A stretch of 64,000 nt of DNA. It comes from Escherichia coli. GTDB taxonomy: Bacteria; Pseudomonadota; Gammaproteobacteria; Enterobacterales; Enterobacteriaceae. How positions within the stretch are numbered: the stretch's first letter is position 1; every line of letters begins with the position of its first letter. Below are positions 10 through 9,318 of this stretch, in pieces. The stretch lies in the NCBI GenBank assembly GCA_002099625.1, contig GCA_002099625.1_4857.1; one strand, 5' to 3'. The notes beneath the pieces are model-generated. The model did no database searches. It saw only the letters and a list, made by a program, of their open reading frames with translations, and was not told where the DNA came from. The position numbers and the translations under genes were made by a program.

Positions 10-3000
10 ATGTCGGCGTATCCTGGGGTGAATCTGGTTGCTATTCTGATTACCGGTACAGATGCAATGATCTGCTTAGGCAGTGACTATGCGTATTATC
101 TGGTCATCTTTGACGGCACCATTGACCATGCAAAACATCATCGCGTTGTTAAAGTTTACTTGGGCGATTACCGAAATGGTAACGCGGCCGGTGTGATTAC
201 AACCACACCATGGGTTGCCGATCCATCAACAAACGATTTGATCGTTTGCAACGATCGGGTTTATCTACTCCGCACTGTCCTTACCTCCGGTGACTATTTC
301 GTGAGTATGCGTAGCATCGCACTCAACGAACTTAATCTGGGTGGTAGCAACACGTTTGTGGCGGATGTGTTAACAGGTGGGATGTTAACGTCGGGAGATA
401 ATATCTACTTGCGTCAGGGTCAGAAACGTTCTGATACAGATGTGTTGGTAGCGCCAGTAACACAAATCTACGCAGATGCATCGGCGAAGTGGAATAGTGC
501 GCGAAATTTCGTCCATGGTCCGGAATGTAATCACGCGATTGCTGTGGATGGGCTGAACTTTCGTGTTGGTTTAACGCCAACAGTCTGGTTTGCTTCTACT
601 ACAGGGCAAACTATTAACTTTAAACAATGGGTGTCAAGCTTTGTTGTTGATTGCAGTTCAATGACGGTAACGCTGGAAGGTGCCGATCGATTCCCTATCG
701 TGGCCGATCTTACCACGGTCCGTTATAACGGCGGGGCTGAGATTGGGATTCCGAGCCGGAAGTGGGGCGAAGGTCAAGCTAATAACCGAACCTTTGCAAC
801 ATCGCAAGACAAGTATATTGTTTCGCAAGGACATGCAGGCGATCGCGACCTAATGCCTTATGTCACGATTACAACGTTAGATGACGGTGTGAGTTGGTAC
901 GAGTACCTGTCGTGTGACTACAACTTCACTGCCAGAAGTTTTAGTGCGGTAATGTTAAACCAAGGTCGTGGTTCTATCTACGAGCTGGGTATGGCGTATC
1001 CGCTGACTCTGGGAGCGAATTCCAGACTTATCTGGTTGTCACAACCGCGTTCCCGTTTGGCAATTGAAGTTGAGTTTGATCCGAACACCACTTACTCAGG
1101 TAAGGCGGGGTATGGCCCAACTAACAATCGTCGTGTAGTAGATTCTATCACGTATGAGAATCTGTCGCAGATGTGCCACATTGTTACACCGGCGTCGCCT
1201 GGTACAGAGTTAAACGGCTGGTATTGCACAGGACCAGAAACATTCCCTTACCACAACGTTTCCGGCACTTTCACGATTCATGCCGATCGATTGACGCTGT
1301 CACAAGCTGAATGGGATAAGATGAAGCAGATGATCATCGACGGAGCACCGGCAGGCGCTGCGAATGGTTATGCTTCGGAATTTATCCTTGCTGCAAATAA
1401 CGCAGGAAAGGCATTGTTTTCCGTTTGGTTCATCGGCATCGGAACGGCCACACCGCTCACATTAGCACAAGTAGCATGTACACGTACTGTGAACAATGTT
1501 AACTTGTTAGATATCTACTACTTTACACTGAAACCAACAATCAGCAACGGGCAGGTAACATTCCCCGCAGCGATATTGGCACTGTTTGACTTCTATAACA
1601 ACCTCGACTATGGCTTGAACTATGCTACGTTGGGAGAGATAACGGGAGGAAAAACACGCCGGCCGGGACAACCTACCATGGTGTCGGTAGATGGTACGCA
1701 GTTCGGGTTGTATCTTCCACACACGTTAACCTTGCGCCAGATTGGCGACTTGGGTGCGCTTAACTACGCTGCTGGTCTTACGCTGTCTAATGGTACCTGG
1801 ACGCGTTCTTCTGCACCACACGGCGTTGGACGTATGGCACCGTCACACACTCCAGTCAGCCCAGCTTATCTGGCTCATCGTGATCAGGTGATGCTACACA
1901 ACTCATCTCTCGACTACGTCTATTGTGGTGGTATCGCAATGTCGTCGAGTGATTTTGTTGCACGTCCGAGTTTCGGTGGGGCGACTGAGACTGTTGTTAT
2001 CGCCGGTGTGGAAACAGCCGAAGGTTGGCTGGTATATGTGACTGAGGAAGTTAACCTGCGTTTCGGCTCGAGCACTTATAAGCTGCCTACGTGGTATATT
2101 GACCTCAGCGCAGCGTTTCCAACAAACCATCAGAACCGGACATTCTACCTGCACGCTAAGGTAGAAAATGGTACACCGAAGTACGTAATGGACGTGGTTC
2201 AACATCCAGACACTGAAACGGAACTCTACATCGGGTATGTTAAAACGGGCTCGTCGCGAGTCGTCGAGACTAACGTCGACCATGCTAAGCGATTGGGGGC
2301 GGTAAAACAGCTGTTGGAACACGCGGCGGTTGAGAATAAGCATGATGTGGAAGTGGGAAGGGATGCAGCAACGGGCAGACTGGCACCATTGCGTAAAGAA
2401 GCGATGGGTCCTTTGTCAGTCGATGCTACGAAAGGCTATCTGGATAGTCAGTTGCTTTATACCGTATCTGACGCACAGCGTCGCGGTAAAGCGATGGTGT
2501 CCAAACGTTTCGAAGGCTTGAAAACTTTGCCGGCGTTTACTCAGGCAAACAAGTCGGGGGCGTTTTGGAAACATCCTACAACAATCGCGACGGTAACGGC
2601 CGACGAGAACAGTGAAGCGACATCGTTGGGTATGGAGTGGGTAGGTATTCCAACGCCCGCTTTCGCTCCGACTTCAACAAACTTGATGGTGGTGGTGCAA
2701 AGTAAATTCGTCGTCCCAGGTACACTGGGAGTAGAAACGACCTTTAATGTCCACGTTGCCCCATGGGAGGCGGTGGATGGCTTTTTCTACAACGTCGAGG
2801 CGGAAGGTACGGATGTTAACATTGACGAAAATCCAGAAGTGTTATTGCCGTCACCACATACCGTGCACCACAAACAGCACTCTCTGCCAGCAGGCGTGCC
2901 GTGCACCTTTACATTTGTCGCGGCGGTAAGTTCTTCAGCGCTCGAAACAGCTAACCAGCATATTTGCTCTTGGCTTTTCACGGACGCTGGGGGTCTACCA

Positions 3001-3276
3001 ATCACCACCGATCTTTCGGATAGTAAGATTCAAATCTTACCACAGTCGGGAGAGACCAACGGCACACCAGTTGTTCTGAACAGTCGTAGCTACACGTTTA
3101 CGAATGTGACAGGTGCAATCCCGGTTGTTACCACGGGCGCTCAGGGTTTATTCCCACCACCGATCGTGGCGTGGGATGGCGATGATCTTACGTTAACGAT
3201 TGCGCACGATTGGGTGAACGAGAGAGGACGTCAACAGCCTGATATTATCCAGGTCAATCTTATGTTCCGTACCTAA
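10..3276 (+). CDS. large virion structural protein (putative tail-fibre/baseplate-associated); possibly 5'-partial
   Basis: 1088-aa ORF from first in-window ATG; positions 1-9 are in-frame sense codons so the gene may start upstream of the window; no enzymatic motif recognised; immediately precedes a fibre-like gene. Confidence 0.6.
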   Translation: MSAYPGVNLVAILITGTDAMICLGSDYAYYLVIFDGTIDHAKHHRVVKVYLGDYRNGNAAGVITTTPWVADPSTNDLIVCNDRVYLLRTVLTSGDYFVSMRSIALNELNLGGSNTFVADVLTGGMLTSGDNIYLRQGQKRSDTDVLVAPVTQIYADASAKWNSARNFVHGPECNHAIAVDGLNFRVGLTPTVWFASTTGQTINFKQWVSSFVVDCSSMTVTLEGADRFPIVADLTTVRYNGGAEIGIPSRKWGEGQANNRTFATSQDKYIVSQGHAGDRDLMPYVTITTLDDGVSWYEYLSCDYNFTARSFSAVMLNQGRGSIYELGMAYPLTLGANSRLIWLSQPRSRLAIEVEFDPNTTYSGKAGYGPTNNRRVVDSITYENLSQMCHIVTPASPGTELNGWYCTGPETFPYHNVSGTFTIHADRLTLSQAEWDKMKQMIIDGAPAGAANGYASEFILAANNAGKALFSVWFIGIGTATPLTLAQVACTRTVNNVNLLDIYYFTLKPTISNGQVTFPAAILALFDFYNNLDYGLNYATLGEITGGKTRRPGQPTMVSVDGTQFGLYLPHTLTLRQIGDLGALNYAAGLTLSNGTWTRSSAPHGVGRMAPSHTPVSPAYLAHRDQVMLHNSSLDYVYCGGIAMSSSDFVARPSFGGATETVVIAGVETAEGWLVYVTEEVNLRFGSSTYKLPTWYIDLSAAFPTNHQNRTFYLHAKVENGTPKYVMDVVQHPDTETELYIGYVKTGSSRVVETNVDHAKRLGAVKQLLEHAAVENKHDVEVGRDAATGRLAPLRKEAMGPLSVDATKGYLDSQLLYTVSDAQRRGKAMVSKRFEGLKTLPAFTQANKSGAFWKHPTTIATVTADENSEATSLGMEWVGIPTPAFAPTSTNLMVVVQSKFVVPGTLGVETTFNVHVAPWEAVDGFFYNVEAEGTDVNIDENPEVLLPSPHTVHHKQHSLPAGVPCTFTFVAAVSSSALETANQHICSWLFTDAGGLPITTDLSDSKIQILPQSGETNGTPVVLNSRSYTFTNVTGAIPVVTTGAQGLFPPPIVAWDGDDLTLTIAHDWVNERGRQQPDIIQVNLMFRT

Positions 3277-3323
3277 CAGATAGCGCTATGGGGCAAGGAA
3301 GCCCCAATCAAAGGAGTTTGGCA

Positions 3324-4526
3324 ATGGCCGAAATCATTTATCAGTACCCGCTTGACCTTACCGGGACATTAACGTCGAACGCCGTTACGCGGCGTATTAC
3401 GTTAGGTTCTGGTAAAGTTAACCGGGCTTTTGCATTTCCTGACGGAGCTTTCTACGCGGATACCTTCCGCTTGGCGGCTGCGAATAAACCAGGTGTCTAC
3501 CCGTACAAACGCGGCACAGACTACGAACTGATTTTTGCACATACTGCATATCAGAAAATGACCAAGAACCGCGAAGTGGTCATGGGTGTGGTGGTAACTA
3601 ACTCGGCCATTCCTACTGATATCGAAGTCTCTGCGCAAGTCGTTGGTGGTTTTCAGTCCGCGAACGTCGAAGGTATCCGACAAGCGATTGCGTCGTTGAA
3701 AATTGAAGACCGTGTGGTGGACTTCAAGGATCTTCGAAACGTACCTGATACGTTCCCATCCGCCCCGACGTATAAAGACCTTGGCGATATCTACGGTTTT
3801 GAGTATATCATTACCGTACTCGCTGGGATTAAAGATGCGATTAACTCCGGCTCTGCAGTACAGCTGGAAGAAATCAAAGGTATTCTGGACGGTCTGAAAA
3901 ACGACTTCCTCGATGCCTTAAATGCCCACGTCAACGCCGAAGGTAACGTACACAATCTCGACATTCATCAGGTTAATGGCCTGACGGAGACGGAGATTCG
4001 TGCTCTGATTCAAAGTGTACAGACTGCCATTGACGCCACTATCAAAGATATCGGCGACTTAAGAGCAGCAGACACGGCGTTGGGACAACGCATCGATGCA
4101 GTTGTGGCTTCGTTAGCCGCGTGGAACGACCAGCTTAATGTAGTTGCTCAAAATTACCAGAAAATGTCGTTAGCATTAGCTAACCTTAATTCTCTGGTGT
4201 TGCAATTACAGAAGAAGGTTAACGATCTTCAGTCTGCGCTGAATGAAACAAATCAGCGTGTCACGGATCTTGAGAATCAGGGCAAAGACTTCCAACAGCA
4301 AATTGATAACCTGCAAGGACAAATCAACAGTCTTAAAACTCAGGTTGTAAACAACACCAACGCAATTTCGCAGGCAAACCAGAATCTGGCGAACCATGCG
4401 GCTGCGGATAACCCACACCCGAATTACCTCCATAAACAGTATGGCGGTGTTGTGCAGGCTGCTGTTCACGTCAACAACAACCTCACCTCGCGCGACGATG
4501 TTCAAGCTGAAGCGGGTACTAAGTAA
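3324..4526 (+). CDS. coiled-coil tail-fibre-like protein
   Basis: ORF 3288-4526 trimmed to ATG 3324, preceded by AAGGAG at 3311-3316; C-terminal half has heptad-like coiled coil (LQKKVNDLQSALNETNQRVTDLENQGKDFQQQIDNLQGQINSLKTQ). Confidence 0.6.
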   Translation: MAEIIYQYPLDLTGTLTSNAVTRRITLGSGKVNRAFAFPDGAFYADTFRLAAANKPGVYPYKRGTDYELIFAHTAYQKMTKNREVVMGVVVTNSAIPTDIEVSAQVVGGFQSANVEGIRQAIASLKIEDRVVDFKDLRNVPDTFPSAPTYKDLGDIYGFEYIITVLAGIKDAINSGSAVQLEEIKGILDGLKNDFLDALNAHVNAEGNVHNLDIHQVNGLTETEIRALIQSVQTAIDATIKDIGDLRAADTALGQRIDAVVASLAAWNDQLNVVAQNYQKMSLALANLNSLVLQLQKKVNDLQSALNETNQRVTDLENQGKDFQQQIDNLQGQINSLKTQVVNNTNAISQANQNLANHAAADNPHPNYLHKQYGGVVQAAVHVNNNLTSRDDVQAEAGTK

Positions 4527-4591: not shown

Positions 4592-4984
4592 ATGGCGATA
4601 TCTATTAAAGACGTCAGAAACCGCGTCCAGATAGTCGAAGCTAACATGGCGACAGGCCCCCGTATCGACGCGCAAGTGGCCTCTAAAGCCCATAATGCGG
4701 CAGACCGATTTGGGGGTTGGACGAAAGCACAGCTAGATTGCGGCGGGACATGTTCTTGGACGTGCTCTAACGGTTGCTCGCATGGCTGTTCGAGCTGTTC
4801 AGGAAGCTGTTCTGCTTCTTGTATCGGTAGCTGTTCTTCGACGTGTGGCGGTAACTGTTCTGGTTGCTCTGGTTGTTCTGGTGGTTGCAGTAGTAGCTGT
4901 ACCGGTAACTGTTCAGGTGGTTGCGGCGGCTCTTGTTCCGCAAACTGCTCCGGGGCCTGCTCCGGCGGCTGTTCAGGTCGCTAA
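4592..4984 (+). CDS. Cys/Ser/Gly-rich repeat peptide A (putative radical-SAM substrate / precursor-like protein)
   Basis: 130 aa; AAGGAAG RBS then ATG; N-terminal about 49-aa Cys-free leader-like region, then 81-aa core with 22 Cys at period about 4 (CSxx repeats); ends CSANCSGACSGGCSGR. Confidence 0.6.
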   Translation: MAISIKDVRNRVQIVEANMATGPRIDAQVASKAHNAADRFGGWTKAQLDCGGTCSWTCSNGCSHGCSSCSGSCSASCIGSCSSTCGGNCSGCSGCSGGCSSSCTGNCSGGCGGSCSANCSGACSGGCSGR

Positions 4985-4994
4985 GGGGGATTAA

Positions 4995-5399
4995 ATGGCA
5001 ATTGGATTAAAAGAACTGAATAACCGATTAAACACGATCGATGCAAACGCTTTAAAGAACACCACGAATGTGCAAAACTACATTCGCAATAAAGCTACGA
5101 ATAACGCCGACTTGTTCGCAGGTCAAGGCCGTTCGCACTATGACTGTGGCGGCACATGCTCTTTTAGTTGCTCGAGTTGTTCTGGCGGGTGTACTGGGTC
5201 CGCTACGGGTGGTTGTGGGTCGACTTGTTCCGCAAACTGTGTATCGGGCTGTAGCAGCAGCTGTACGGGCTGTAGCTCTTCGTGCTCGGGTGGTTGTAGC
5301 GGCACGTGCACAGGCAGCTGTTCTGGGGGTTGTGGTAAATCCTGCTCCGCAAACTGCTCAGGTGCGTGCTCTGGTGGTTGTTCAGGTCCTAACTCCTAA
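4995..5399 (+). CDS. Cys/Ser/Gly-rich repeat peptide B (paralogue of A)
   Basis: 134 aa; AGGGGGA RBS then ATG; leader-like N-terminus similar to A (M-A-I-x-(I/L)-K-(D/E)-(V/L)-(R/N)-N-R); core begins HYDCGGTCSFSCS and ends CSANCSGACSGGCSG as in A. Confidence 0.6.
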   Translation: MAIGLKELNNRLNTIDANALKNTTNVQNYIRNKATNNADLFAGQGRSHYDCGGTCSFSCSSCSGGCTGSATGGCGSTCSANCVSGCSSSCTGCSSSCSGGCSGTCTGSCSGGCGKSCSANCSGACSGGCSGPNS

Positions 5400-5414
5400 C
5401 TGACGGAGGCTTAT

Positions 5415-5621
5415 GTGATCAGTCTCAAGGCTATTCGAAACCGTCTCGTTACGGCAGAAGGTTACATTACAACCGCACAGGCAAACAACTATATCGCTAA
5501 CCAGGGCACCGTGTCAACCACGAACAACCTGGCTGGTTTACCGCTTTCCCACTATAACTGTAATGGTGGGTGTAGCTGGTCCTGCAGCGGAAGCTGTAGC
5601 CGTGGAGCGGGGAATCGATAA
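5415..5621 (+). CDS. short Cys-rich peptide C (truncated-core paralogue of A/B)
   Basis: 68 aa; GGAGG at 5405-5409, GTG start (an ATG at 5413 runs straight into TGA); leader similar to A/B (MISLKAIRNRL); core only CNGGCSWSCSGSCSRGAGNR. Confidence 0.45.
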   Translation: MISLKAIRNRLVTAEGYITTAQANNYIANQGTVSTTNNLAGLPLSHYNCNGGCSWSCSGSCSRGAGNR

Positions 5622-5643: not shown

Positions 5644-6531
5644 ATGAAAAACGATTTGCATCTTGCGTATAAAACCACATTCAACCACCCGCTGCATCTA
5701 TCTTCCCCAGACTCGGTGCGTGCACACCTCGCTGACAAAGTCAGACTGATTGCACAGATTCCTGGTGAGTGGCCAAAGGTTCGTGGTCGCTTCTTGACCG
5801 ACAAGAAGAACTACACCGTAGAAAATACGTTTAAGATCCGTGATATGGTTGCAGAGGCCATCGTTATCTTTAACGGCGATGGTAACTCTCGCGGCGTGTT
5901 AGTCGACGGTAAGTATTTCTTCAGTGAAGGGATTTTGAACAACAGCGTCGATTTAGAACTGATGTTTACACCGTTTGACGAACTTGAAGCAAAACCGATG
6001 GCGCGCCGTTGGTGGAGTCCGGACTATCTGGGCTCGTTCCCTTACTACTTTGTACTGGTACCTGCCGATACGGAAACGTATTTCGACACCGAACCATACA
6101 TCGATATCGAGGGGTATAAAGAACTCGGCATCACCCGTTTAGCGGACATGATGGCGTATAGCTATAAGTTCGTGTGGGATAAAAAGCGTTCTGTCTGGTA
6201 TGCGCTGACTGACGATTTTGAAATCACCAAGCGTATTCGTAAGCCGTGGATGCAACACCTGGTTCAAACTCGATATGGGGATTACCCGGCGACAGAAGCG
6301 GATTTGAGTAAGCTGGTAAGTTTCCTCTTAACGAAGGTGGATTTAACGAAAGAAGAAGCAGAAGCTGTTTCTGAGATTCGTGGTCGTTCGGTAACGTTGG
6401 CCGATTTGAAACGTCTGAACGAAAGACACGCCGACCTGAACAAAATTTTAGCTGCCTATCACGACCCGATGTTACTGGTGCCTGGCGCTAACGTAGACGA
6501 AGATCCTTTATTCGCCATTGATTATATTTAA
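5644..6531 (+). CDS. hypothetical protein (Cys-peptide/rSAM operon member)
   Basis: 295-aa ORF with ATG start and GGAG RBS; no motif recognised; sits between peptide genes and rSAM genes. Confidence 0.55.
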   Translation: MKNDLHLAYKTTFNHPLHLSSPDSVRAHLADKVRLIAQIPGEWPKVRGRFLTDKKNYTVENTFKIRDMVAEAIVIFNGDGNSRGVLVDGKYFFSEGILNNSVDLELMFTPFDELEAKPMARRWWSPDYLGSFPYYFVLVPADTETYFDTEPYIDIEGYKELGITRLADMMAYSYKFVWDKKRSVWYALTDDFEITKRIRKPWMQHLVQTRYGDYPATEADLSKLVSFLLTKVDLTKEEAEAVSEIRGRSVTLADLKRLNERHADLNKILAAYHDPMLLVPGANVDEDPLFAIDYI

Positions 6532-6553: not shown

Positions 6554-7468
6554 ATGACAGATCAAGTAGAATCCAGGATCTCGTCTGAACTGTACGACAA
6601 ACCGTCAATTCTGTCGGTTGTCGCAACTTCTAAGTGTAACTTAGACTGTAGCTTCTGTGGAGGGGCTTATTACATGGATAGAGAAGATACTTCTCGTGAG
6701 TTTCAACGTGAAGAGATTCTCTCGATTTTAGAGAAGAATCCGGATATCGGTGAGATTCATTGGACGGGCGGTGAGCCGCTGTTAGCGCAGCGTAAGATTG
6801 AAGACTTCGTGAACGAGTTGAAGGAGTCTCATCCGAACCTCCGTCATCACATGTACACCAACGGTTTAAAGATGCGTAAATCACATCTGCCGTTGCTGAA
6901 ACAGTTCGACCTTATCTTTGTGTCCATTGACGGCTACAAGAAGTCGGAACGTCCGTTTATGAACTTTGTAAACGGTGGTAATCACGAAGCGCTGGAAGTG
7001 CTGTACGAGCTGGACAATTATTACACCTGGGGTGTGATGACGCGTGACCAGTTAGGCGATAAACGCTGGTACGAAGATTTCATCGAGCTGCACCGAGCAA
7101 TCTATCATTACCGTCCAGGTGGTGTGTCGTTGTTGTTTGATGCGATGATGCCGAAACCGTTATCGCCAGACCACGTCATGAACTTCATGTACGGGTATTG
7201 GAAAATACTCGACAATATCGAACGCCTTAACATGCAGAACGACTCTGAATGTGGGCTTGCGATCAGTAAAATGTTCGATACCGAGTGCAACACGTGCAGT
7301 GAAGTGCTGTGGCTTAACGCCGACGGTACGCAGGAGCAAATTCAGAACGCCCCAGAGATATTGGAAGTCGGCTGTAATCGCCTGGCGCGTTCTATCGGCG
7401 TTGATGCGTATAACTACATCAACCGTGTAATTTCTGCTAAGCGTAAACGGGCGGCGAACAATGAGTAA
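6554..7468 (+). CDS. radical SAM enzyme (putative peptide/protein-modifying maturase)
   Basis: ORF 6518-7468 trimmed to ATG 6554 (GGAG upstream; 6518 appears to be TTG); CNLDCSFC = CxxxCxxC 4Fe-4S/SAM motif; WTGGEPLL SAM-binding glycine motif; four C-terminal Cys (partial auxiliary-cluster region). Confidence 0.75.
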   Translation: MTDQVESRISSELYDKPSILSVVATSKCNLDCSFCGGAYYMDREDTSREFQREEILSILEKNPDIGEIHWTGGEPLLAQRKIEDFVNELKESHPNLRHHMYTNGLKMRKSHLPLLKQFDLIFVSIDGYKKSERPFMNFVNGGNHEALEVLYELDNYYTWGVMTRDQLGDKRWYEDFIELHRAIYHYRPGGVSLLFDAMMPKPLSPDHVMNFMYGYWKILDNIERLNMQNDSECGLAISKMFDTECNTCSEVLWLNADGTQEQIQNAPEILEVGCNRLARSIGVDAYNYINRVISAKRKRAANNE

Positions 7469-8789
7469 TAGCGAACAGCAAATCCAGTACACACCACGCA
7501 CGTATCAGGTTGTGACTAACCTGTCATGTAACCTGGACTGCGAATACTGCTACGAGCGTAAATATCCGCGTAACAACAAAGTAGCAGACGTGATTGATTT
7601 TATCCACGCTTGTTTCGAGCGTGATAAAGATATCCCGAACGTTGAAGTCATCATCGATATCATCGGTGGTGAGCCGTTCATGCAGCCTAAACTTCTTTTG
7701 GCGGCCTTTGAAACCGCAGAGAAGTTATGCGCAGAACACAATCGCCCGTATATGTTCAGTATCTCCACGAACGGTACGCTTCTGGACCGTCCGCTGAACA
7801 AAGAAATTATCGAGCGCTGGAAAGACAAACTGTCTATTGGGGTCTCCATCGATGGTTTACCTGAAGTCCATGACAAATATCGTATCTTTACCACGACGCG
7901 TGAAGGGTCGTACGAAGCTGCGGTACGCGGTTACAATTATCTGAAGAGTGTTGGCATCGCTGAACTGGGCGTAAAAGCGACGTTTACGATCGATACATTG
8001 CCGCACTATGCCGCCAGCATGAAATCGTTAATTGACATGTCCGGCGGTGGTACCATTTCTGGTAATGTAACGTACGAAGATATCCTGCCGCGCCATATGG
8101 CGTTGGATATCGCGAACCAGATGATGGACGTGATGGACTACTGGATTGAGAAGGGTCTGCACACCAACCCGCGTAACACGATTACACACATCATCCCGGA
8201 TGGCCTGAACTTTATGGCAACTTGGGACCCGGATTGGCGTGACAAACTCTTGCACGACGACTCTGTTCGTCTCGACCCAGAACGCCTGAAACCGTACTGC
8301 GGTACGTTGACGCACATGACCTGTCTCGGCTTTGATCGCAAGATTTACGGTTGTAACCGTTTCATGTCCACGGTAACTTCCCGCTCTGCTGTAGCGGAAC
8401 TGGTCGGTCGTGAGTTTGTGAGTCTGGACGGTGGTAAGCTGTTAGAAGAGATTCAAACGCAGTACACCAACTACCCAGAAACCTGTTTAGGGTGTCCGAT
8501 GAAGCACAGCTGCGGTAGCTGCGCAGCAGCATCGTACGAAAACGGTGAAGGTACACTGGAAGACCGTAAAGCGTATCACGCCGAGCGTCGTCAGTGTGGT
8601 TGGACTACTGCGAAGCTGATGGCGGCGGAATATTGGTATCAAAAAACTGGTACGACTCGCGCATCAGATTTGCACGATAAATCCATGTGCTATTGTTCAC
8701 GTTGTGTACGCCAACGTGCCGAAGCAGAAAAATTACAAAACGGAGCCCAGAATGAAGTCAATACTGATTCACAATTTTACGAAGCGTAA
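7461..8789 (+). CDS. radical SAM enzyme with SPASM-like C-terminal Cys cluster
   Basis: 442 aa; ATG overlaps the stop of the upstream rSAM gene by 8 nt (translational coupling); CNLDCEYC motif; IGGEPF motif; C-terminal PYCG..MTCLG..GCNRF..ETCLGCPMKHSCGSC seven-Cys pattern typical of SPASM auxiliary clusters. Confidence 0.8.
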   Translation: MSNSEQQIQYTPRTYQVVTNLSCNLDCEYCYERKYPRNNKVADVIDFIHACFERDKDIPNVEVIIDIIGGEPFMQPKLLLAAFETAEKLCAEHNRPYMFSISTNGTLLDRPLNKEIIERWKDKLSIGVSIDGLPEVHDKYRIFTTTREGSYEAAVRGYNYLKSVGIAELGVKATFTIDTLPHYAASMKSLIDMSGGGTISGNVTYEDILPRHMALDIANQMMDVMDYWIEKGLHTNPRNTITHIIPDGLNFMATWDPDWRDKLLHDDSVRLDPERLKPYCGTLTHMTCLGFDRKIYGCNRFMSTVTSRSAVAELVGREFVSLDGGKLLEEIQTQYTNYPETCLGCPMKHSCGSCAAASYENGEGTLEDRKAYHAERRQCGWTTAKLMAAEYWYQKTGTTRASDLHDKSMCYCSRCVRQRAEAEKLQNGAQNEVNTDSQFYEA

Positions 8790-9318
8790 ACTGCACTTGG
8801 TCGATCGCTTCCTGCGCAAAAGCAAGCTGTACAATGTGCACGCAATTGTGGCAGGGGAAGACTTCACTGATGAAATCCAAAGCCTGTTGATTAAATACGG
8901 GCTGAATGTGATGATCCCGGTCTACTGCGTTGAGAAAGGACACGAGTCTGTCGCGGAAATCGAAAAGCGCAACCCTGGCTTTGAGAAGCGACTGCTTGCA
9001 TACCCACGCCACAAAATCGAACTGCTACGTCACTCTATTGATGAAGCCAGTCCTGAAAGTTTAGTGGCATTGGGCTTGTCATTCCCGCGGATGCGTATTC
9101 GTAACTTACGCTCCAATAACCCGGTTGACGCTTATTACACAGAACGTCAAATCTTCGAAGAACACCTGCTCCCGCAGTTGGAAGAAGAAGAGCAACACAA
9201 CATTTCTCTGTTGTGGGCCGGTAACCTCGATCAGGACTTCCAGATGCTGGACTTCGGTTTGTTGTTAGAACTTGGCCTGATTGAGGAGGACGAATGTCTG
9301 TTACTGACAAAAGCTTAA
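8752..9318 (+). CDS. hypothetical protein (operon member)
   Basis: ORF 8704-9318 (apparently GTG start) trimmed to ATG 8752 with GGAG at 8742-8745; overlaps end of rSAM gene; no motif recognised. Confidence 0.45.
   Translation: MKSILIHNFTKRKLHLVDRFLRKSKLYNVHAIVAGEDFTDEIQSLLIKYGLNVMIPVYCVEKGHESVAEIEKRNPGFEKRLLAYPRHKIELLRHSIDEASPESLVALGLSFPRMRIRNLRSNNPVDAYYTERQIFEEHLLPQLEEEEQHNISLLWAGNLDQDFQMLDFGLLLELGLIEEDECLLLTKA

Follow-up and report, generated by a model that had tools for sequence, protein, structure and literature searches.

Why should a jumbo phage set two radical S-adenosylmethionine (SAM) enzymes of different size side by side, downstream of a run of small cysteine-rich open reading frames (ORFs)? 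The question is raised by the 64,000-nucleotide stretch of DNA analysed here (the window), which belongs to an SPN3US-like jumbo phage and shares 98.4–98.9% DNA identity with Salmonella phage SPN3US and its relatives (Seoulvirus, phiKZ-related). The two radical SAM (rSAM) genes correspond to SPN3US_0164 and SPN3US_0163, which since 2011 have been labelled only “putative radical SAM superfamily protein 2” and “1”, respectively. An earlier reading made from the letters alone (the sequence-only reading) had singled out the pair, and its coordinates, its lengths of 304 and 442 residues, its CNLDC and GGEP motifs and its 8-nucleotide (nt) overlap are all reproduced here; it had further proposed either two sequential modifications or a division of labour between substrates. 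We consider it probable that the pair forms the catalytic core of a phage cassette that matures a module of tail-fibre proteins in which cysteine recurs at every fourth residue (“CXXX”). The components of this cassette in the window are as follows.

4592..4984, + strand: protein A, 130 residues with 21 Cys (phrog_6085, 5e-40)
4995..5399, + strand: protein B, 134 residues with 20 Cys, a paralogue of A (phrog_6085, 3e-41)
5415..5621, + strand: protein C, 68 residues with a GTG start and four Cys (CNGGCSWSCSGSC) (phrog_6085, 3e-24)
5644-6531, + strand: accessory protein of 295 residues (gp165 orthologue), the third conserved cassette component
6554..7468, + strand: short rSAM enzyme, 304 residues (SPN3US_0164; PF04055, 9.8e-16, 58.8 bits)
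7461..8789, + strand: long rSAM enzyme, 442 residues (SPN3US_0163; PF04055, 9.6e-15, 55.6 bits)

The rSAM identity of both enzymes lies far beyond chance, since each scores about two-fold above the PF04055 gathering cut-off of 29.5 bits. The short rSAM gene begins at an ATG with GGAG 8 nt upstream, and its product carries the cluster motif C28-x3-C32-x2-C35 (SKCNLDCSFC) together with G72-G73-E74-P75; the long enzyme has C23/C27/C30 (SCNLDCEYC) and GGEPF. Neither of the two weaknesses that the sequence-only reading had foreseen for itself came to light: no loss of cluster cysteines is seen on alignment, C28, C32, C35 and the others being invariant, and the housekeeping candidates MoaA, QueE, NrdG, PflA and anSME all score between 29 and 57 bits against cut-offs of 131–349. 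Matches by hidden Markov model (HMM) and the cysteine patterns point to the peptide-modifying SPASM/twitch group of rSAM proteins for both enzymes, which lie beside Cys-rich, substrate-like proteins. The two ORFs overlap by 8 nt (ATGAGTAA), the ATG of the long gene lying within ...AAC AAT GAG TAA at the end of the upstream gene (AACAATGAGTAA). This overlap is not conserved, being replaced by gaps of 10–12 nt in CR5 and Wellington and by a 4-nt overlap in Machina, and in distant phages the order of the enzymes may be reversed or the genes fused. Short and long enzymes align only over the rSAM core (BLASTP, 26% over 144 residues; hhalign probability 98.8%, 19% identity), and on this alignment they are distant paralogues. 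The same profile–profile comparison, which spans the core only, led us to reject the idea that the short enzyme is a truncated copy of the long one.

The short enzyme had been credited with four C-terminal cysteines; four are present, although just three are conserved, with C245, C248 and C274 invariant in an alignment of 24 homologues and C232 not. Across 13 lineages sharing 14–40% identity, C245 and C274 stay near-invariant and the third C-terminal cysteine shifts position, and the CX3CX2C, GGE and TNG motifs are invariant throughout, from which we argue that the short enzyme retains SAM cleavage. Its AlphaFold2 model, with a predicted local distance difference test score of 87.9, comprises a partial barrel followed by a hairpin-plus-helix domain (strands 234–262 and helices 275–303) built around C245, C248 and C274, and this three-Cys domain appears twitch-like in the model. 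Its N_Twi_rSAM score is 39.2 bits against a cut-off of 170, and the seven-Cys SPASM signature is absent, the enzyme having three conserved C-terminal cysteines only. In the PDB the model is matched best by CteB (E 2.6e-11), next by SuiB, and after these by viperin, MoaA and anSME, with EpeE also among the matches; those in NCBIfam are weak, confined to the core and spread over many families, including the cyclophane-forming YhhB/AmcB, and HxsC is the top NCBIfam match of divergent short enzymes. The family is tiny, comprising 36 clusters, and is restricted to this phage cassette. An assignment as housekeeping MoaA, QueE or NrdG (Prokka calls the gene moaA in SPFM2) was rejected on the low scores and on this restricted distribution.

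The long enzyme, for its part, bears out the SPASM-like seven-Cys cluster attributed to it: C280, C298, C342, C345, C351, C354 and C379 stay invariant across 28 homologues with identities as low as 26%, with C288 and the C-terminal CYCSRC not conserved. The resulting pattern, C280, C298, C342-x2-C345-x5-C351-x2-C354, C379, is slightly off the spacing of the SPASM signature (C-x(9-15)-G-x4-C, gap, CX2CX5CX3C, gap, C), and the Pfam SPASM model PF13186 gives no match to it; among its viral relatives, numbered here with an L, that model (cut-off 21.5 bits) scores L042 above threshold at 26.3 bits and L046 and L035 below it at 17.9 and 18.2 bits. Three [4Fe-4S] sites are predicted. The protein starts straight at the cluster motif, with no N-terminal recognition domain. 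Its best NCBIfam match is TIGR04115 (125.6 bits, cut-off 350), followed here by the PapB model NF047865 (113.6 bits, cut-off 340), which aligns residues 22–357 with positions 12–319 of 330, and CteB is its best sequence match among solved structures. By its sequence the long enzyme is a sister lineage of the TIGR04115 and PapB families and not a member of either by the curated cut-offs. Its family, too, is restricted to this phage cassette, and relatives beyond the jumbo clade are 32–39% identical.

What, then, would these enzymes act upon? Proteins A, B and C are paralogues within phrog_6085, and each has a 49-residue N-terminal segment ahead of its Cys part. Cysteines in A fall mostly at every fourth residue (C-S/T/G-x-x), with a spacing of exactly four in 17 of 20 intervals, and the same holds for 16 of 19 in B, which is 54% identical to A. 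Protein A varies in none of its 21 Cys columns among 7 phages from 5 genera, and its core shows differences of 0.64–0.89 at synonymous sites (pS), which are saturated, vs 0.10–0.31 at non-synonymous sites (pN); in B, 20 of 23 Cys columns are invariant. Since Cys columns are held despite saturated synonymous sites, A, B and C are real genes. For protein C, an ORF of about 68 residues is kept in 13 related phages; in phages of the CR5, Wellington and Derbicus types it is cut down to CxxxCSW, with 2 Cys. Neither Asp nor Glu occurs in the cores of A and B, and the Cys-repeat substrates have just one His. Cysteine at every fourth residue is what defines the adjoining target of TIGR04115-type enzymes, and A and B show it; the target-repeat model itself (TIGR04114/PF27846, cut-off 20 bits) gives 18.4 bits for A, 17.1 for B and 13.7 for C. 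Tandem repeats at the DNA level were considered as a source of the periodicity and discarded, as only weak, short arrays occur and the periodicity is held at the protein level. In addition, long but spurious ORFs arise from such Cys-repeat genes when the other frames or the opposite strand are read.

A functional unit is also suggested by its recurrence. A set comprising one or more Cys-repeat proteins, a gp165-like protein, a short rSAM enzyme with a 3-Cys domain and a long rSAM enzyme with a 7-Cys SPASM-like domain was found in about a dozen phage or prophage lineages, whose enzymes share 14–40% identity. Jumbo phages of Erwinia and Cronobacter preserve the gene order in full, though the short enzyme is just 40% identical: giant protein, fibre, A, B, C, the 295-residue protein, short rSAM, long rSAM, a 185-residue protein and a DUF4376 protein. 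Beyond the jumbo clade, all contexts inspected are tail regions of phages or prophages that have this gene set, for example the following.

L006, prophage of Deferribacter abyssi, following a GpJ-like tail protein: 302-residue fibre with HxHDDRYYTE repeats and a 29-Cys CXXX tip; 250-residue gp165-like protein; short rSAM; long rSAM
L007, 213-kb contig: 568-residue fibre, its tip with the Pfam Cxxx-target repeat (precomputed PF27846 match); two rSAM enzymes
L009, 140-kb contig: Cys-tipped coiled-coil protein; gp165-like protein; long then short rSAM (reversed order)
L089, bacterial genome with GcrA and a gene-transfer-agent-type holin: uncalled 79-residue Cys-repeat ORF; gp165-like protein; short rSAM; long rSAM
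L091, metagenomic contig: 110-residue Cys peptide; gp165-like protein; long rSAM; short rSAM; DUF4376 protein

Scanning the viral contigs of IMG/VR with an alignment of the long enzyme yielded 79 loci, which we divided into a paired class (27 loci, long enzyme with 30% identity or more) and a single class (52 more distant loci). A Cys-repeat ORF lies near the long-enzyme relative in 77 of the 79, the exceptions L032 and L033 representing one lineage, in which L033 encodes a 97-residue protein ending in a minimal CxxCxxxC. Within the paired class a short rSAM enzyme accompanies the long one in 27 of 27 loci, and a gp165-like gene does so in 26 of 27; a second co-occurrence count, inflated because the short-enzyme HMM also scores long-enzyme cores at about 40–50 bits, does not enter these figures. 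The gp165-type protein is always located between substrate and enzymes, and it has no match in Pfam or NCBIfam models. The single class has one enzyme, with an N-terminal extension of about 45 residues, and both the second, short enzyme and the gp165-like protein are absent (52 loci); its Cys-repeat proteins carry up to 92 Cys, and a neighbouring gene matches tail-fibre PHROGs in two of three loci checked. The TIGR04115 cut-off is passed by the single-class members L042 (434 bits) and L038 (400 bits), and distant paired-class relatives reach 155–188 bits. In two loci of a related jumbo phage lineage (L011 5542-6453 and L025 5543-6454) a second intact short rSAM gene, its product 63% identical to the first, is inserted between A and B, which hints that the short subunit tunes specificity.

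A connection to tail fibres is suggested by where the Cys repeat sits in these other lineages, usually, as judged from sequence matches, at the C-terminal tip of a recognisable tail fibre. The phrog_6085 family of A, B and C matches the C-terminal tips of L006 (residues 169–263), L007 (443–531), L035 (356–444) and L036 (270–357) at 2.7e-7 to 2.7e-14. In their N-terminal parts, the substrates of L028 and L035 match tail-fibre PHROGs at 1e-32 to 1e-55 (L035 up to 2.7e-32), and that of L036 matches tail or tail-fibre PHROGs at 2.5e-10 and weaker; the N-terminal match of L007 is to “virion structural protein” only, and L006 is fibre-like by its repeats, with no PHROG tail match. Moreover, an HMM built from the N-terminal segment that A, B and C share maps to the shaft–tip junction of the L036, L007, L006 and L029–L031 fibres (E 2.5e-7 to 5e-3), with a common motif of approximately N-A-D-x-L-x-G-x5-Y-x-C-x2-3-C-S-W. 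Given these tip and junction matches, the three window proteins are most readily understood as free-standing fibre-tip modules that have retained the junction segment. A different homology was tried and abandoned, namely a leader common to A, B and C and the N-terminal domains of about 110 residues in the Cys proteins of single-enzyme (TIGR04115-type) loci; it had rested on a by-eye likeness between “I-S-x-K-D-x-R-N-R-V” and “I-T-A-S-D-x-x-x-L-x-x-x-V”, and the A/B/C HMM returns E > 1.

How might such a cassette work? We envisage that late in infection, in the reducing cytoplasm, both enzymes would act on the same substrate, probably as a complex, as suggested by the fusion of the two in L035 (one in-frame ORF of 686 residues), by their conserved adjacency and by the precedent of TrnC/TrnD in thuricin CD biosynthesis, which form a tight complex that crosslinks its precursors collaboratively (PMC12093266). 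The gp165-like protein, probably an adaptor or chaperone, would serve as the docking or chaperone subunit, the long enzyme having no recognition domain of its own. Each enzyme would cleave SAM to a 5′-deoxyadenosyl radical, which would abstract hydrogen from the core and allow a Cys sulfur to be joined to a carbon of a neighbouring residue, giving a thioether of the sactionine or ranthionine type comparable to the products of PapB, CteB and SkfB. The resulting ladder of small rings would stiffen a thin Gly/Ser/Cys rod or knob without disulfides, and matured A, B and C would then join the fibre apparatus (gp167/gp168) through their 49-residue N-terminal segments. A fuller version of this proposal, to which we give somewhat less than an even chance, is that an asymmetric two-enzyme rSAM complex and a new-fold adaptor covalently staple the Cys tips of fibres with a C–S ladder, the tips being detachable subunits in the jumbo phages, to yield a disulfide-independent receptor-binding or capping structure by a new acceptor chemistry. 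The acceptor chemistry would be new because the cores hold only Cys, Ser, Thr, Gly, Ala and Asn, with no acidic acceptor.

Several observations weigh against the view that the pair matures a tail-fibre module. The long enzyme scores far under the curated TIGR04115 and PapB cut-offs, and the thioether chemistry would be an extrapolation from these distant relatives; PapB requires a carboxylate acceptor C-terminal to the Cys (PMC12373016), and the A and B cores offer none. The enzyme fusion occurs on a single metagenomic contig, and its short half has no C-terminal cysteines. The accessory protein has no recognisable fold, so that an adaptor role is a guess. Finally, the substrates in the window are separate small proteins rather than fibre tips, and their incorporation into the virion is extrapolated from the other lineages; no report places A, B or C in SPN3US virions, and gp167, gp165, gp164, gp163 and gp161 receive no mention in the SPN3US literature searched for these names. 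It should be considered, on the other hand, that two of the three substrates are without annotation and the third lies under a wrong-frame ORF, and that the core of A forms one 85-residue tryptic peptide with 21 Cys, owing to which the three proteins would have been missed.

It is also possible, if unlikely, that the long SPASM-like enzyme is the only catalyst and that the short one is a substrate-binding, scaffolding or electron-delivering partner whose own chemistry is dispensable. TrnC's rSAM activity alone is strictly required in TrnC/TrnD (PMC12093266), in the L035 fusion the short half no longer has its C-terminal cysteines, the long enzyme would need another substrate binder, and two short paralogues beside one long enzyme in a related jumbo phage are what one would expect if the short subunit carries specificity. 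Yet the CX3CX2C, GGE and TNG motifs of the short enzyme have been kept invariant at 14–40% identity, and the gp165-like protein offers an alternative candidate for the binding role.

The division of labour anticipated by the sequence-only reading, in which each enzyme would serve a different member of A, B and C (RumMC1/RumMC2 might suggest as much), fares poorly. It could account for three substrates that fall into two kinds (A and B with long repeats, C with a 4-Cys stub) and for the extra short paralogue between A and B in L011 and L025; nevertheless, at least eight divergent loci with a single substrate (L006, L009, L028, L029, L034, L036, L089 and L091) keep both enzymes, and L035 fuses them, which makes a split by substrate very unlikely. 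Of the two options originally put forward, that of two sequential modifications survives, alongside an obligate complex.

Equally improbable, in our view, is a chemistry other than thioether formation or no cross-link at all, such as a metal- or Fe–S-binding ladder, formylglycine formation (anSME), epimerisation (YydG/EpeE) or an aromatic cross-link at CSW. Both enzymes do match anSME, the short one has the weak YhhB/AmcB match and the anSME and EpeE structural matches described above, the cores lack an acidic acceptor, and C-x2-3-C-S-W/F-x-C opens the core in many lineages and makes up nearly the whole remnant of protein C in phages of the CR5, Wellington and Derbicus types. The strongest matches, however, are to the thioether formers (PapB, TIGR04115, CteB), and the CSW motif is absent from L009, L028, L034 and L035, which keep the short enzyme. 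Strict conservation of the cysteines fits a reacting or a structural role for each of them and does not tell these options apart. Lastly, we put least faith in A, B and C being precursors of a toxin, signal or anti-defence peptide freed at lysis, for although a small precursor with a leader-like N-terminus and adjoining rSAM maturases is the standard layout of peptides made by the ribosome and modified post-translationally (RiPPs) and the nearest characterised relatives produce sactipeptides or ranthipeptides, the homologous module is covalently part of fibres elsewhere, the “leader” is homologous to the shaft–tip junction, the genes lie within a structural operon ending at one terminator, and profile searches of the window proteins found no protease, transporter or immunity gene in the cassette.

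Placing tail-fibre maturation by the pair, our preferred reading, among known systems helps to delimit what is new. An rSAM/SPASM maturase with a Cys-repeat target is known already, as predicted in TIGRFAMs/NCBIfam: the TIGR04115/TIGR04114 (PF27846) CXXX-repeat system has been defined in silico, and we know of no experimental characterisation of it, none having turned up in the open-access literature and bioRxiv. The window shares with that system the target Cys at every fourth residue and a maturase with an rSAM core and seven-Cys SPASM-like domain, and true TIGR04115 members occur in viral contigs (L042 and L038), at least two such loci lying beside fibre-like genes; the window enzyme differs in lacking the N-terminal extension of about 45 residues and in being paired with a short rSAM enzyme and a gp165-like protein. 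PapB, the freyrasin maturase, likewise installs many small rings along a repeat, as thioethers from Cys sulfur to Asp C-beta (a ranthipeptide); it is matched over its full length by the long enzyme, and the CSAN tetrapeptide of A and B recurs in its CSAND repeats. Unlike the present cassette, PapB acts alone, with a RiPP recognition element (RRE) and a leader.

The closest organisational counterpart is the His-Xaa-Ser system, in which the paired rSAM maturases HxsB and HxsC act with the repeat peptide HxsA and the accessory protein HxsD according to NCBIfam/TIGRFAM descriptions, and which is, to our knowledge, likewise uncharacterised. Both arrangements have one SPASM-type rSAM enzyme, one shorter rSAM enzyme, a short-period repeat substrate and a further accessory protein, and HxsB is among the matches of the long enzymes as HxsC is the top match of divergent short ones. 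The differences lie in a Cys rather than a His-x-Ser repeat, in gp165 having no NCBIfam match, and in the scores, all far under the cut-offs, which are 75.1 bits for HxsB (cut-off 370) and 45.0 for HxsC (cut-off 267.9) in the window, with ranges of 75–114 and 45–53, respectively, once its relatives are included. TrnC/TrnD and RumMC1/RumMC2 (ruminococcin C) resemble the cassette in their adjacent rSAM genes and Cys-containing precursors; these pairs are similar-sized SPASM paralogues and make secreted bacteriocins, whereas the pair here is asymmetric, has a third protein and has a fibre module as its candidate substrate. CteB, the SCIFF maturase, is the best solved-structure match for both enzymes (17–19% identity; TM-score 0.61 for the short one), and SkfB, characterised by the title of its report as a thioether-forming rSAM enzyme with two [4Fe-4S] clusters, is among the profile matches of the short enzyme. 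SkfB uses a twitch rather than a SPASM domain, and both CteB and SkfB have N-terminal RRE domains, which are absent from the window enzymes. In the open-access literature and bioRxiv, neither the asymmetric obligate rSAM pair nor the third protein nor the link to tail fibres was found, and none of the three is reflected in phage annotations; the same literature yielded no case of peptide-antibiotic-type chemistry applied to a structural protein of a virus.

Peptide maturases of the rSAM superfamily are known as makers of small secreted natural products. If the proposed role is correct, RiPP chemistry extends to virion assembly, as a previously unrecognised maturation step in tail-fibre biogenesis, and the cassette would supply missing parts, including three unannotated or misannotated genes, of an apparatus that is poorly resolved in SPN3US-type chimalliviruses, the fibres and peripheral baseplate; consequences for host range and the stability of particles are conceivable. 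To enzymology, it would offer a tractable asymmetric rSAM pair, with E. coli and Salmonella hosts and an existing SPN3US amber-mutant system, a layout shared with HxsB/HxsC, and a substrate devoid of the residues that serve the nearest known enzyme as acceptors. As regards annotation, Cys-repeat ORFs were missed or misframed in both records examined (SPN3US JN641803 and the bacterial genome of L089). The SPN3US record leaves out proteins A and C, lays a wrong-frame ORF, SPN3US_0166 (JN641803 143409-143744, equivalent to window 5068-5403), over protein B, and starts SPN3US_0164 too far downstream, cutting off the CX3CX2C cluster motif.

The surroundings of the cassette in the window comprise the following features.

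10..3276, + strand: C-terminal 1088 residues of a giant tail protein (SPN3US gp168 orthologue), 98–99% DNA identity to SPN3US
3288..4526, + strand: gp167 orthologue, a fibre-like structural protein of the virion containing a long coiled coil (phrog_2163 virion structural protein, 5e-108)
8752..9318, + strand: 188-residue protein (gp162 orthologue; phrog_7988, 7e-87, from residue 17 of the longer ORF), overlapping the end of the long rSAM gene
9294..9965, + strand: DUF4376 protein (gp161 orthologue; PF14301, 2.4e-9; phrog_2837 “tail protein”)
9983..10006, no strand assigned: bidirectional intrinsic-terminator-like hairpin with a 10-bp stem including 7 GC pairs, closing the + strand unit
10047-10574, − strand: DUF7941 protein, one of three next door
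11840-12481, − strand: DUF1353 protein, among the fibre genes
12770-13423, − strand: GH108 and PG_binding_3 endolysin, among the fibre genes
13466-15643 and 15658-16977, − strand: the remaining two DUF7941 proteins

The gp168 orthologue, truncated where the window begins, heads the operon as visible here. It is a tail protein related to phiKZ gp131, which lies at the baseplate periphery (PMC5105663), and has been named “tail fiber protein” elsewhere (PMC7411985). The gp167 orthologue, annotated in SPN3US as “virion structural protein 20”, also has weaker tail-fibre PHROG matches and coiled-coil Pfam matches. Downstream, the gp162 orthologue is kept across the jumbo clade and has no Pfam match, the DUF4376 family occurs in tail or tail-fibre-assembly proteins, and the first terminator to appear lies past gp161. 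Members of DUF7941 have been proposed to make up the “fiber cloud” of phage Goslar (bioRxiv 10.64898/2026.04.21.720040). The 725-residue DUF7941 protein also has a Gp38 tail-fibre-adhesin domain (PF05268, 4.8e-18) and ends, like the 439-residue one, in a similar terminal motif, Y-x-P-Y-x-K-x-A-P-x-P-W. With fibre and tail genes, DUF4376, DUF7941 and a Gp38 adhesin as neighbours, the cassette therefore sits in a tail-fibre and host-recognition region. GC content is even along the window (0.45–0.52), and ARAGORN finds no tRNA or tmRNA genes in its 64,000 nt. A sigma-70 promoter scan was set aside as uninformative for a phage with its own RNA polymerases, returning fewer sites than in shuffled sequence.

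Among the variant arrangements seen in the survey, L136 (6980-10665; also L135, L139, L146 and L152), from human-gut viral contigs, has a “long-type” enzyme of 356 residues without SPASM cysteines and a second rSAM enzyme of 302 residues with SPASM-like cysteines, followed by two Cys-repeat peptides of about 113 residues, with no gp165-like gene. At L128 (3606-4721) a Cys-repeat protein and an apparent Hint/intein-type domain (CFPEGTRVLM...GDRVIGIDG) share one ORF, whose 3′ end is overlapped by the short rSAM gene, the long one lying about 1.4 kb further downstream. In L089 the 79-residue ORF (5017-5256) is in the +1 frame and begins 2 nt beyond the stop codon of a gene resembling the T7 tail fibre, and a frameshift fusion of the Cys repeat to the fibre is conceivable. 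The records of SPFM1, 5-10, 12, 14, 15 and 20 match the region in short pieces only, with frameshifted rSAM and gp165 genes, which looks like sequencing or assembly error rather than biology. Finally, identical copies of the long enzyme (proteins P0037-P0067) are found on contigs of about 240 kb labelled Salmonella enterica, E. coli or “[Curtobacterium] plantarum”, one cluster alone covering 598 contigs; complete SPN3US-like phage genomes are therefore often deposited within bacterial assemblies, through a carrier state or contamination.

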